From positions 2,176,001-2,240,000 of the forward strand of contig CAVOJR010000001.1 in assembly GCA_963696295.1 (NCBI GenBank): 64,000 bases of DNA, given 5' to 3'. The notes below the pieces were generated by a model. It searched no databases. It worked only from the letters and a program-made list of their open reading frames with translations, and was not told where the DNA came from. Every line of letters starts with the position of its first letter. Within the stretch, counting starts at the first letter, position 1. This stretch comes from an uncultured Chlamydiae bacterium. GTDB taxonomy: Bacteria; Chlamydiota; Chlamydiia; Chlamydiales; JAJFMB01. This document shows, in pieces, positions 31,343 to 36,411 of the stretch. Made by a program: the position numbers and the translations under genes.

Positions 31343-32374
31343 ATGAAAGAAATAAACATCACAAAAGCTACCATTGAAGACTTTATTGATAATGTCAAAT
31401 TTATAAGCGGGAGTAAGTTAGATAAGATTTTAGCTCAAAGCAAACAGGATCAAGTTTTATTCGACTGTGTCGATTCCCTTTGCCAAGGGGATGAGGCTTT
31501 GATCCTAAATCGGATTCTCTATACCATCTACACGATAAAAACGAAGCTGTATGGATTAAATACCTTTGAAGACTCCTATTGTATTAATAGGATCCAAAGC
31601 GCGATTGAGCAGTATCTCTTGAGCTATCTGGATAATTTCATCCCTTCAGATGTGAATTATCCTCAGGAGCCCGGCAAATATATAGCCTGGATGAAGGATT
31701 ATATCGATTCCCATGCGGCCTGCCATCATGTGGTTTATGAAAAGTTTATTCCGGAAGAAGCGACACTCGAAGACCTGAAATTTTTCTTCATCCAGGAATC
31801 TACCATTGACGTGAGCACGGATGATTTTCTGGCTCTGCTCCAGACCGGCGCCACGGGGGGAATCAAGCAGGAAATTTCCCATAATTATTGGGACGAGGTG
31901 GGTGAAGGGGAATTGGATTCCTTCCACTCCCTTCTGTTTTTCCGGGCGCTAAAATCATTGAATGTTCATGAGAATGAACTTGATATAAAGAACCTTGATC
32001 TCAATGCTCTTGTTTGTGGAAACATCCAGATCATGTTCTCTTTAAAAAGGATCTATTTCGACTATGGTGTAGGCTATTTTGGCGCTGTAGAACATGTGGC
32101 TCCAACGCGCTTTAAGAGTGTGATGCGCGCTTGGGAACGTCATAAATTAGATGTGGCAGGGGCCCAATATTATATCCTGCACATTGGCTTGGACGTAGAG
32201 CATTCTCAAGGGTGGATGGATAATGTGATCGCTCCGAGAATGCTCCAAAATTCAGAGTCTATAAAAAATATGACTAAAGGAGTTTTGTATCGGTTGGAGA
32301 GCTCCCGGATGTACTTGGATTCCATACGCGACAAATTCCCGAGCGTACGTAATTTGGCGGCGTCATGGAGCTAA
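31343..32374 (+). CDS. Heme-oxygenase-like diiron oxidase (iron-containing redox enzyme family)
   Basis: Ligand pattern NYWDEVG..FH, GAVEH and YYILHIGLDVEH. Confidence 0.8.
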   Translation: MKEINITKATIEDFIDNVKFISGSKLDKILAQSKQDQVLFDCVDSLCQGDEALILNRILYTIYTIKTKLYGLNTFEDSYCINRIQSAIEQYLLSYLDNFIPSDVNYPQEPGKYIAWMKDYIDSHAACHHVVYEKFIPEEATLEDLKFFFIQESTIDVSTDDFLALLQTGATGGIKQEISHNYWDEVGEGELDSFHSLLFFRALKSLNVHENELDIKNLDLNALVCGNIQIMFSLKRIYFDYGVGYFGAVEHVAPTRFKSVMRAWERHKLDVAGAQYYILHIGLDVEHSQGWMDNVIAPRMLQNSESIKNMTKGVLYRLESSRMYLDSIRDKFPSVRNLAASWS

Positions 32375-33621: not shown

Positions 33622-36411
33622 ATGAAAGATTTAGCTATCAAATTAGGGACGACACGTGAGTTTTATGAGAAACCCATTATAAAACTTATTGAAGAACAGG
33701 CCTTAAATAAGATAGCTGTTTATTATGAGAATAAAGAATACACCTATCAGGATCTCATAAACAAATCGAATTCTTTGGCTCAAGAGCTTCTGGGCATGGG
33801 CGCGCAGCCGCAGATGATCATTCCTGTCTTTATGCGGGGCGGATTTAAGTACATCGTTTCATTGTTAGCCTGCCTAAAGCTGAACTGCATTTTTGTTCCT
33901 TTGGATCCGGCCTGGCCTGAGGAGAGAATTAAGAGGTTATTGGATAATTTAGAGTTCAGGTTTCTTCTGACCGATCAAAAAACGCAAAATGGGGTCTATG
34001 TCGATGACGCCATAAAAAGCGCCGAACCTGTCTCCCTTTTATCTAAACCCACCGATCTCATTTACGGTCTTTATACCTCCGGGACCACAGGGGAGCCGAA
34101 ATGCGCCCTCAATTACCACAAAGGGGTGCTCAACAGGCTGATCTATATGAATCGCCGGTTTGGAATTAAAGAGAACGACGTCATATTGCAAAATAGCAGC
34201 ATCGCCTTTGATTCCTCCCTGTGGCAAATATTTTGGCCATTGATTAATGGGCTGTCAGTCGTTTTACCCGGCAGTTCCGGCTATAATCTTATAGAGCGCC
34301 TTGAGATTATTGAAAGATACAAAGTAACCTTTACCGATTTTGTTCCTACCATTTTTAATAGTTTGGTAAATTACCTGCAGTATGATAAACATGATTTAAA
34401 ATCTTTGAGAACAATTCTTATTGGTGGAGAAGAGGTCTCGAATAGAGACGTTAAGCTATTTAAACAATATTATCCGGAAGTAGATTTAGTAAACACTTAC
34501 GGTCACACCGAAAACTCAATTGGTTCTATTTTTCATTCGATTCAAGCATCAGAGATGAATGGAAAAATACCCTTGGGCACCCCTATTGATAATACCTTTG
34601 CTTTGATTCTGGATAATGAAGGGGGAATTGCCGCTAAAAACACCTTGGGTGAGATAGCCATTGGCGGCGAATGCCTCGGTGCGGGATATTATAAGAACGA
34701 CAAGCAGACGGCCAAAGCCTATATTGAGGTTGAGTGCGGGTCATTGGGGCGGCAACGAGTCTATAAAACCGGGGATTTTGGGTATCTATCTGGCGAATTG
34801 CTATATTTCTCAGGCAGGGAAGATGAACAATTCAAAATAAACGGCATCCGTATAGATTCTCAAGAATTAACGGATTCGATTTGCCGGTTTGAGGGTGTGA
34901 GTCAGGCTTGCCTGTTGTTATCAGGCGAGAAAAAATTTATTATTTGCGCGCTTGTGTTGCGAGAAAACACCGTCTTCGACCAGAAGAAGCTGCAGGATAT
35001 TCTTTCGGACAAATTTCCAAAGGCTATCCTGCCCAAGGAATACCACATTTTCCCTGAATTTCCAACCAGCCACAATGGCAAGCTCGATAAAAAGGCCATT
35101 CTTGCGGCGATAAACCTGAAGAAAAAGAGTATTAACTCTGATCTGTTGAAAGGGATCTGGGAACAGGTTTTAAATAGGGCAATATCGGATGAAGAGAGCG
35201 ATTTTTTTGAATCAGGGGGTGATTCCTTAGACGTAGTCAGGCTGGCTTGTATTATAAATGCGACATACAATATTAAAGTATCAGTTTCAGAGTTATTAGA
35301 AAATTCGACTTTAAAATCGCAGAGAAACTTAATAGATACCGGTTTCTCGCAAAAGAAATCTTTTCTCCCGATCCTCGAAGAGGATATAAAAATAAATCTT
35401 CCAAGAGATATTCTGATGATTGGCGGCAACGGTTTTATCGGCATTCATATTCTGTCTGAAATTTTAAAAAGTGATAAAACCGTCCATTGTATTATTCGGG
35501 CTTCGACCCATCAAGAAGCAGCGGATAAATTAATTGCCGCAGCAAAAAAGTACCAATTAGACAACGTGATTAATGCGCCGAACATAAAAATCATTCCTGG
35601 CGATATAGCTAAGGAAGAGGTGTTTGAAGGCCTTTCGGTCGATACTGTGTATAACTGCTCGGGTGTTGTTAACTTTACGGCGGACTATGCTTATCACCGG
35701 GGAATCAATGTATTAGCCTTGAAAAATATTATCCGGTTTTGCCACCGGACAAAGGCCAAATTGAACCATATTTCGACATTGTCAGTGTTTCTTAATCATG
35801 GAGAAGTAAATATTTCCGAGGAGACCCTCCCGGTTTTGAATGGAGAGGAGGATGGTTATAATGCTTCAAAGATCGCCGGCGAGCTGCTCTGTCAGGAAGC
35901 AAAAAAACAGGGAGTCAAAATCAATATTTTCCGCGTCGGCGAAGCTATGCCGCATAGTAAATTGAGTATCAGGCATGAGAAATCTTTTGCTCAAGGGATC
36001 CATGAATTTTTAATGTCGGAAAGACTGGTTCCAGGGGATATTGAGCGATATGATTACACTCCTGTCGATTTCATCGCATGGGTAATTGTTTTTCTACAAA
36101 ATAATTCGGCAAAAGATACTTTCAATATATTTAATAAAGAGGGGATTTGCTGCTCTGATTTAATTGCCATTTTAAAATGGGAAATGTGTTCCACGTCAGA
36201 TATAATTCTTAAATTAAAAGCCTCCACAAAATACAACTATATTTACGATATTTTACTATCAAGCGGAAAAAATATAGAAGAAGTATTTAAGAAGGCCTTG
36301 TCATTAACTATCAATAAATACAGTCAAGAAAATGGTGGAAATCCTTCTGCTAAAAATAATATCGACGCTTATTTAAATTTTGTCCATAATACTTGCACAG
36401 TTTGCAGTTAA
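33622..36411 (+). CDS. Standalone NRPS-like adenylation-thiolation-reductase (A-T-R) protein
   Basis: A domain: YTSGTTGEPK, FDSS, NTYGHTE, YKTGD, GREDEQFKING, NGKLDK; T domain: FFESGGDSL; R domain: GGNGFIG, YNASK. Confidence 0.92.
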   Translation: MKDLAIKLGTTREFYEKPIIKLIEEQALNKIAVYYENKEYTYQDLINKSNSLAQELLGMGAQPQMIIPVFMRGGFKYIVSLLACLKLNCIFVPLDPAWPEERIKRLLDNLEFRFLLTDQKTQNGVYVDDAIKSAEPVSLLSKPTDLIYGLYTSGTTGEPKCALNYHKGVLNRLIYMNRRFGIKENDVILQNSSIAFDSSLWQIFWPLINGLSVVLPGSSGYNLIERLEIIERYKVTFTDFVPTIFNSLVNYLQYDKHDLKSLRTILIGGEEVSNRDVKLFKQYYPEVDLVNTYGHTENSIGSIFHSIQASEMNGKIPLGTPIDNTFALILDNEGGIAAKNTLGEIAIGGECLGAGYYKNDKQTAKAYIEVECGSLGRQRVYKTGDFGYLSGELLYFSGREDEQFKINGIRIDSQELTDSICRFEGVSQACLLLSGEKKFIICALVLRENTVFDQKKLQDILSDKFPKAILPKEYHIFPEFPTSHNGKLDKKAILAAINLKKKSINSDLLKGIWEQVLNRAISDEESDFFESGGDSLDVVRLACIINATYNIKVSVSELLENSTLKSQRNLIDTGFSQKKSFLPILEEDIKINLPRDILMIGGNGFIGIHILSEILKSDKTVHCIIRASTHQEAADKLIAAAKKYQLDNVINAPNIKIIPGDIAKEEVFEGLSVDTVYNCSGVVNFTADYAYHRGINVLALKNIIRFCHRTKAKLNHISTLSVFLNHGEVNISEETLPVLNGEEDGYNASKIAGELLCQEAKKQGVKINIFRVGEAMPHSKLSIRHEKSFAQGIHEFLMSERLVPGDIERYDYTPVDFIAWVIVFLQNNSAKDTFNIFNKEGICCSDLIAILKWEMCSTSDIILKLKASTKYNYIYDILLSSGKNIEEVFKKALSLTINKYSQENGGNPSAKNNIDAYLNFVHNTCTVCS

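Follow-up and report, generated by a model that had tools for sequence, protein, structure and literature searches.

A chlamydial gene trio of an HrmI-related diiron oxygenase, an aminomutase-derived PLP enzyme and a standalone A-T-R protein, predicted to act on a basic amino acid

A coupled three-gene locus in a chlamydial genome

We have analyzed a window of 64,000 nucleotides, the whole stretch of DNA considered here, from the genome of an uncultured Chlamydiae bacterium (assembly GCA_963696295.1, contig CAVOJR010000001.1, positions 2,176,001 to 2,240,000). It contains three adjacent genes on the forward strand that very probably serve a single pathway with a basic amino acid as its substrate. 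They code for a heme-oxygenase-like diiron oxygenase (HDO) related to HrmI and BelK, of a subclade that we call xTDD (31343..32374, 343 aa, PF14518) and predicted to be an amine N-oxygenase; a class III pyridoxal phosphate (PLP) aminotransferase derived from glutamate-1-semialdehyde aminomutase (GSAM) and distinct from the housekeeping HemL (32365..33621, 418 aa, PF00202); and a standalone adenylation-thiolation-reductase (A-T-R) protein, similar to nonribosomal peptide synthetases (NRPS), with the specificity code DSWDLGTIGK (33622..36411, 929 aa, PF00501, PF00550 and PF07993). In the pathway that we tentatively propose, the A-T-R protein would load lysine and release an amino aldehyde, the PLP enzyme would turn this into a 1,2-diamine, and the oxidase would N-oxygenate the side-chain amine. 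The open reading frames (ORFs) of the oxidase and the PLP enzyme share 10 nt, and the stop codon TAG of the latter is followed at once by the ATG of the A-T-R gene (33621/33622). The initial annotation had described three tightly coupled genes with intact catalytic motifs and no condensation domain, and the ORFs, Pfam domains and residues all agree with it.

The oxidase is an HrmI relative with an altered pocket

The oxidase matched PF14518 with 95.8 bits and no NCBIfam model. Among solved structures HrmI was the sole strong match (phmmer E 1.5e-46; in a profile search E 1e-90, with the next at 6e-9). The AlphaFold2 model (pLDDT 93.9) has the heme-oxygenase-like helical fold that had been expected, and HrmI came first in the Foldseek search (TM-score 0.86, 29% identity over 337 columns), followed by SznF, RohS and FlcD at TM 0.6–0.7 and 14–18% identity (17% for SznF). 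HamA of the fragin pathway ranked 35th (TM 0.42, 14% identity, E 1.3e-3), so that fragin, first taken as the closest system, gives way to HrmI and BelK. A folate role like that of chlamydial CADD, a member of the same HDO superfamily from the same phylum, was rejected on 15% identity, a TM of 0.46 and the lack of any TIGR04305 match in the genome.

HrmI and BelK, from the hormaomycin and belactosin pathways, act on free L-lysine, whose epsilon-amine becomes a nitro group, and ornithine is given as not being a substrate of BelK (passages of PMC11611017). The oxidation passes through N6-hydroxylysine according to parts of PMC13108848, which put the functionally validated HDOs at about a dozen. 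The chlamydial oxidase shares with these two enzymes the fold, the N-terminal domain, the six iron ligands and a conserved tyrosine: E185, H195, E250, H280, D284, H287 and Y276 align with E205, H215, E269, H299, D303, H306 and Y295 of BelK. The 3His/3carboxylate set was invariant in the alignments, and iron/O2-dependent activity is predicted. The differences concern the pocket. Passages of PMC11611017 place F179 of BelK at the site of the extra iron ligand E189 of SznF, with Phe there in all BelK-like proteins of that paper. At this site, located by spacing from the first ligand, the chlamydial enzyme has T159 instead, preceded by S158 where HrmI has Lys and the relatives R or K, and it carries Q229 where those with R/K-F have S or A.

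We compared 160 oxidase loci, i.e., the best 80 of 436 genome loci and the best 80 of at least 516 metagenome loci, many of the latter too short for neighbours to show. The residue pair at the F179 site was R/K-F in 78 of the 80 genome loci, G-F in one and S-T in one, that of Gluconacetobacter sacchari, which was also the only one combining S-T with Q229. None of the 80 metagenome loci had x-T. The pattern x-T-D-D appeared in 16 of 164 proteins from two overlapping databases, and Gln at position 229 was common to these. A quick tree built from 53 rows placed nine xTDD sequences together on one side of a branch (SH-aLRT 93, unstarred, with long branches), while the sister clade retains R-F and has one member adjoining an HrmJ-like gene. 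Among the 78 R/K-F loci, 38 had an HrmJ-like gene and 36 had dapF or lysA; such lysine-supply genes near relatives are a likeness to the HrmI/BelK systems. The PF10014 cyclopropanase, the HrmJ/BelL type of partner, had no match in the chlamydial genome (97% complete), where the partners of the oxidase are the A-T-R protein and the PLP enzyme. We therefore read the oxidase as an HrmI relative that fails two features of the lysine nitration-cyclopropanation module, the Phe with R/K and the PF10014 partner.

Oxidase matches were also present in 17 plasmid records, and the one that was opened, from Agrobacterium, was of the HrmI/HrmJ/dapF type. HrmI-like domains also occur fused to PNPOx-like, arginyl-tRNA-synthetase-like, HMGL-like and methyltransferase domains (P0306, P0320, P0381 and P0354).

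The PLP enzyme lies outside the true-HemL clade

The second protein passes the NF000818 model of GSAM (483 bits, cut-off 398) and stays under the cut-off of the hemL equivalog TIGR00713 (452.5 against 527.3), which is passed (557.6) by the genome's own hemL, coded elsewhere and 39–40% identical to it. With separate hemL and hemA-like genes in the genome, a housekeeping role in haem synthesis was rejected. In a FastTree tree of 35 rows the chlamydial enzyme, its G. sacchari counterpart and 23 database proteins were set apart from true HemL with local support of 100. This clade retains R26, Y144, D233, K261 and E394, corresponding to GSAM Arg32, Tyr150, Asp245, Lys273 and Glu406 (numbering from a part of PMC7338781), so the substrate-loop Arg, the PLP Lys, Asp and Tyr and the Glu406 equivalent are shared with HemL, at about 40–46% identity. 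Unlike HemL, it has no lid motif: all members have other residues in place of the AGSG of the gating loop (Gly162–Val165) and of the Trp of SWGP. In GSAM the AGSG lid closes over the diamine intermediate (PMC7338781, in part). Because the clade has lost this lid, we infer that the diamine is let go rather than retained, which favours transamination.

The closest solved structures were all GSA aminomutases (E 2e-106), and the GntE model gave 329 bits, below its cut-off of 525. A 69% identical enzyme on a short contig (P0021) suggests that a closer relative exists. Matches labelled 'hemL' in 30 Piscirickettsia plasmid records were discarded, being of the true-HemL type and having neither of the other two genes within the annotated 21 kb; on plasmid pPSB1-1 of Piscirickettsia salmonis the true-type hemL lies beside ester cyclase, HAD hydrolase and methyltransferase genes.

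An A-T-R family with one conserved code

The A-T-R protein has its A domain at residues 28–357, T at 508–566 and R at 601–820, with no condensation domain. Asp197 and Lys487 of the A domain, Ser535 of the T domain, and the GxxGxxG and Tyr746/Lys750 of the R domain are all present. The ten code positions were placed by motif, in what we take to be the GrsA numbering, and the exact code was found in 98 of 120 listed homologues (query included; about 30–35% identity). Among the named carriers are Streptomyces, Micromonospora, Clostridium, Vibrio, Pseudomonas and Gluconacetobacter. Because the code shares D235, D278, L299, G301, I330 and K517, six of ten positions, with the Arg-type consensus given in a part of PMC12283262, a basic residue is the likely substrate. 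The Asp278 is typical of basic residues, in a comparison that leaves the HamD code aside.

The surroundings of the family were compared at 32 other loci, from actinobacterial genomes and two plasmid records (33 were fetched and one duplicate dropped; two lower-scoring control loci were excluded). An aldo-keto reductase homologue lay within the fetched stretch in 20 of the 32, aspartate kinase in 9 and a LysA-like gene in 4, and none had an HrmI-like oxidase. Of three LysA-like genes scored against the lysA cut-off of TIGR01048, those of G. sacchari and of an A-T-R locus without oxidase (L202) passed, and that of L208 fell below. Next to canonical HrmI-like genes, several A domains have another code, DVxxMGGCxK. 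Because of the frequent aldo-keto reductase homologue nearby, the family appears to behave as an aldehyde source with exchangeable partners, and its choice between alcohol and amine would mirror the branch proposed for valdiazen and fragin (passages of PMC5878181).

Several uncharacterised cluster types recur around these genes (L198–L228, L195, L196). One combines an aldo-keto reductase, a sulfotransferase, CysN/D, an argininosuccinate-synthase-like gene, a second NRPS and an aspartate kinase, and another an Eis-like acetyltransferase, a DegT aminotransferase and flavin oxidases; some A-T-R homologues are fused to APS kinase. The family was present in at least 15 of 301 genomes of one Streptomyces-containing family (that of G653) and in at least 11 of 201 genomes of the order of a Streptosporangium (G658). 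A 994-aa A-T-R protein with the same code (P0259, 47 cluster members) is found in many strains of the Pseudomonas fluorescens group.

The trio recurs in Gluconacetobacter sacchari

The complete trio was found in one of the 160 oxidase loci, that of G. sacchari DSM 12717, which gives it an occurrence in a second phylum. The order there is A-T-R, PLP enzyme, oxidase, ATP-grasp, major facilitator superfamily (MFS) transporter, L-amino-acid ligase and lysA, with TetR, FAD oxidoreductase and NUDIX genes upstream. The chlamydial proteins are 31% (A-T-R), 44% (PLP enzyme) and 42% (oxidase) identical to these counterparts, and the A-domain code is the same. The G. sacchari cluster has 48–53% GC, against 64% in a left flank with repeated mobile-element-like ORFs. 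Because the only genome locus with S-T is also the only second trio locus, the sequences tie the xTDD subclade to this gene set, on two genomes. With an HDO and two ATP-grasp ligases the G. sacchari locus resembles the mangotoxin type, a design mined in PMC13185094, passages of which count at least 25 types of HDO plus ATP-grasp cluster. The chlamydial locus differs in having no ATP-grasp ligase, and MboA of mangotoxin is an acetylenase. An ATP-grasp gene on the same chlamydial contig (C1:1866014–1867300), 26% identical to the G. sacchari ligases and 340 kb away, was not counted.

Indirect support for the co-occurrence comes from further sequences. An xTDD oxidase (P0010) and a same-code A-T-R protein (P0183) come from the same source on contigs both 22032 long, in four Paracoccaceae assemblies the accessions of a PLP enzyme (P0029) and an A-T-R protein (P0225) follow one another directly, and three further PLP enzyme/A-T-R pairs lie on contigs of equal size. 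Among 251 Acetobacteraceae genomes the only close oxidase was that of G. sacchari, and no more trio loci appeared in 121 genomes of the order of G657 or in 201 of the order of G1282; these searches were made on samples, scored few candidates in each genome and included no positive control.

A proposed pathway and its alternatives

We propose that the holo A-T-R protein would adenylate L-lysine, tether it at Ser535 and release lysinal, an alpha-amino aldehyde; the PLP enzyme would transaminate lysinal to the 1,2-diamine; and the HrmI-like diiron enzyme would take the distal amine of the side chain to the hydroxylamine or the nitro level, giving a product of the type 6-nitro- or N6-hydroxy-hexane-1,2-diamine. 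In G. sacchari the two amino-acid ligases and the MFS transporter would cap and export it as a short peptide, and the chlamydial locus, lacking these, would fit a bare compound set free inside the host cell. The parts of this model differ in strength. N-oxygenation as the reaction of the oxidase is the firmest of them and we hold it with some confidence; lysine as the substrate is favoured, and so, to the same degree, is transamination over a 1,2-mutase reaction. We lean only slightly to the view that the amino acid is loaded first and oxidised only then, suggested because the A-domain code is unchanged in oxidase-free loci and, for several A domains, different near HrmI-like genes, and because the oxidase pocket is altered. 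The lysA genes of the G. sacchari locus and of L202, and the aspartate kinase genes of 9 of the 32 loci, count in favour of the model. The obligate intracellular lifestyle of the bacterium is assumed from its phylum, and a role of the product as antimetabolite or as modulator of competitor or host is a guess.

The chemistry of the first two steps has precedents. In the myxochelin system MxcG and MxcL combine reductive aldehyde release with competing transamination, and for fragin and valdiazen an aldehyde release followed by reduction or transamination is proposed (both in parts of PMC5878181); the aldehyde-to-amine logic that the initial annotation drew from these two systems is supported. 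The best NCBIfam NRPS match of the chlamydial A-T-R protein is MxcG (319 bits, far under the NF038078 cut-off of 2300). We take the MxcG substrate to be lysine and MxcL to be a class III enzyme. Unlike myxochelin, the chlamydial system lacks a condensation domain, its locus contains no catechol genes, and it has an oxidase in addition. The ham cluster has the same set of a heme-like oxygenase, a standalone A-T-R protein and an aminotransferase (HamA, HamD and HamG); however, HamA is a remote fold match and HamD loads valine. Equivalents of HamB, HamC (AurF-like), HamE (cyclase) and HamF are absent from the chlamydial locus, as had been noted (HamC and HamE were sought at the locus only), and therefore no diazeniumdiolate would be expected.

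Several observations weigh against the proposed pathway. The code fits arginine or ornithine about as well as lysine, no paper on it was found in the literature searched, and argininosuccinate-synthase-like genes in 11 loci of the A-T-R family keep arginine in play. The chlamydial genome has no lysA match and its locus no reductase, so both the lysine and the electrons have to be supplied by another source, in the case of lysine presumably the host cell. The A-T-R protein itself is short and long-branched, with no Pfam AMP-binding_C match, and may be partly decayed. The altered F179 site of the oxidase could mean another reaction or substrate altogether. As for the gene set, the full trio was directly seen in two genomes only; 28 actinobacterial genomes with the A-T-R family had no close oxidase (best E 6e-28) and no PLP enzyme above 41% identity; and the A-T-R proteins that have such a linked gene, either PLP enzyme or oxidase, fall into more than a single clade (5 changes for 7 rows).

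There are four alternatives. If lysine is kept and the PLP enzyme works as a genuine 2,1-aminomutase, the product would be a 1-amino-2-ketone. The pathway would then be analogous to the C5 aminolevulinate route but independent of tRNA, and a ketone bearing an N6-hydroxyl could cyclise to a nitrone. The nearest structures, the NF000818 score and the retained Arg26 and Glu394 all speak for this, and an alpha-amino aldehyde is the natural type of GSAM substrate. We nevertheless consider it unlikely, given the clade-wide replacement of the gating-loop motif and of the SWGP Trp, the missing carboxylate for Arg26 on a lysine-derived aldehyde, and the aldo-keto reductase alternative in other loci, which suggests plain end-group conversion. 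Quite unlikely too is that the oxidase acts first, on free lysine like HrmI, with the A-T-R protein loading N6-hydroxylysine or 6-nitronorleucine and the later steps unchanged. The free amino acid is indeed what BelK and HrmI use, the oxidase is the first gene of the chlamydial locus, and the sister clade of xTDD keeps R-F, with one member near an HrmJ-like gene; but the code is identical in loci without an oxidase, several A domains near canonical HrmI-like genes have DVxxMGGCxK instead, and the R/K-F pair is lost in this oxidase.

A different basic substrate, i.e., arginine, ornithine or diaminobutyrate, with late hydroxylation of the guanidine or of the shorter amine as by GntA after amination in guanitoxin, would agree with the six Arg-type code positions, with the related code DSWDVGAIGK and its Arg-type Ala322, with the argininosuccinate-synthase-like neighbours and with the GntE score of the PLP enzyme, albeit under its cut-off; passages of PMC12371840 give a precedent for late N-hydroxylation. 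On the other side, the oxidase has no NCBIfam match and little identity to SznF, ornithine is not taken by BelK, and lysA co-occurs, which makes this distinctly unlikely. Very improbable is a decaying remnant of a larger cluster whose product is no longer made in the chlamydia. The ligases, transporter and lysA of G. sacchari are missing here and there are long branches and a shortened A-T-R protein, but the three frames are open and coupled, the catalytic residues checked are all kept at 31–44% identity to the orthologues, and the A-domain code positions are invariant. Going beyond the lysine diamine pathway that we favour, a wider reading would make the xTDD oxidases a new HDO subfamily acting on carrier-bound or reduced, carboxylate-free lysine, and the A-T-R protein and GSAM paralogue a tRNA-free copy of the C5 logic, leading to an undescribed nitro or nitrone aminoketone or diamine; free-living carriers would export it as a Trojan-horse peptide, and the chlamydia, having shed ligases and exporter, would free the bare compound in its host. 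All of this together is rather unlikely.

Distribution and origin in Chlamydiota

In a sample of 401 genomes of the phylum the full-length oxidase was found only in the genome of the window, and one other had a weak partial match. A full-length A-T-R-type module was present in 18 of the 399 other chlamydial genomes scored, and the 9 best of these 18, which were examined, all had other codes. In other chlamydial genomes, A-T-R proteins that are apparently standalone and of about 1000–1170 aa have different codes (L236 in genome G228, L238 and L240); one reads DAEDIGTVVK, which we take to be a lysine code. NRPS-like clusters are widespread in Chlamydiota according to passages of PMC9666466, and with this and the 18 modules the surprise first expressed at secondary metabolism in the phylum was overstated.

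Horizontal gain, as initially suggested, finds support in the patchy occurrence and in nearest homologues (31–45%) outside the phylum, and no donor can be named. The composition is a weaker guide. The trio is indeed AT-richer than its neighbours (GC of 42.5% for the oxidase, 46.8% for the PLP enzyme and 39.9% for the A-T-R gene, where the ddl-like gene upstream has 50.3% and the ROK gene 54.3%), but among 2017 long ORFs of the same chromosome these values are only at the 13th, 35th and 7th percentiles and the codon usage is ordinary (34th–59th percentile), so that taken alone it is weak evidence of transfer. The insertion site is uninformative, as the ddl-like gene (window 28961–31273, coding for a 770-aa double-domain D-Ala-D-Ala ligase-like protein) was found in one of five relatives searched, at 61% identity and with other neighbours.

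The host genome is of 3.43 Mb in two contigs, in the same order as genomes of 1.0–1.2 Mb, which together with the CdsZ gene in the window marks the host as a chlamydia. A phosphopantetheinyl transferase (PPTase), for which the annotation had proposed a search, is present: two PF01648 matches were over the cut-off, a 214-aa Sfp/HetI-like protein and a short one of AcpS size. The former (in C1:28092–44300) overlaps the beginning of the gene for a 5202-aa NRPS that contains four adenylation domains, and upstream of it lies a 195-aa membrane protein, LysE-like by eye.

Neighbouring genes and elements

The flanking genes had been given as ddl and ROK; the ddl-like gene is indeed upstream, but ROK is not adjacent, since a glycosyltransferase-like ORF of 619 aa (36418..38277, forward strand, 42.9% GC) stands between it and the A-T-R gene, starting 6 nt past the A-T-R stop. 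It has a weak match to diglucosyl-diacylglycerol synthase (49.5 bits, cut-off 557) and had no tblastn match at E 1e-5 in the 160 oxidase loci, G. sacchari included. It is possibly co-transcribed with the trio and probably outside the pathway. In frame near its start sits a palindromic element of about 165 bp (window 36467–36636) with terminal inverted repeats of about 28 bp and a DNA fold z of -12.7. Another 37 blastn pieces, 72–100% identical, lie at more than 12 places on C1, one copy being within the last part of the 5202-aa NRPS.

Scans for promoters and terminators gave counts at chance level. Among sequencing runs no RNA run was listed, and two DNA runs contained nothing beyond short, dispersed pieces, which speaks neither for nor against. 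A dapF gene at 41088–41918 adjoins clpP and glyA, presumably the usual chlamydial arrangement, and was excluded from the support for a lysine pathway. The window also encodes the chlamydial protein CdsZ (above the equivalog cut-off) and, by eye from the translation, a umuD/umuC-like gene pair (22083–23766).

Novelty and meaning

The enzyme classes and the aldehyde-transamination logic are each known. The literature searched, which covered few subscription papers and left MIBiG outside the comparison, gave nothing on the combination of the three genes, on the oxidase subclade or on the A-domain family. The HDO plus ATP-grasp list of PMC13185094 was also outside the comparison, and Data S10 of PMC9666466 may list such loci.

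The locus points to a subclade beside HrmI in which the residue at the site of the seventh iron ligand of SznF has changed and the partner enzymes are different. It also exposes an A-T-R family that crosses phyla, has a single conserved specificity code and had no match in the literature. With only three genes, and a culturable organism carrying a fuller cluster, substrate and product are directly testable, and the three genes may suffice to find a new natural product. For the idea that secondary metabolites mediate the interactions of endosymbionts with hosts or competitors, put forward in passages of PMC9666466, the locus offers a concrete minimal pathway.

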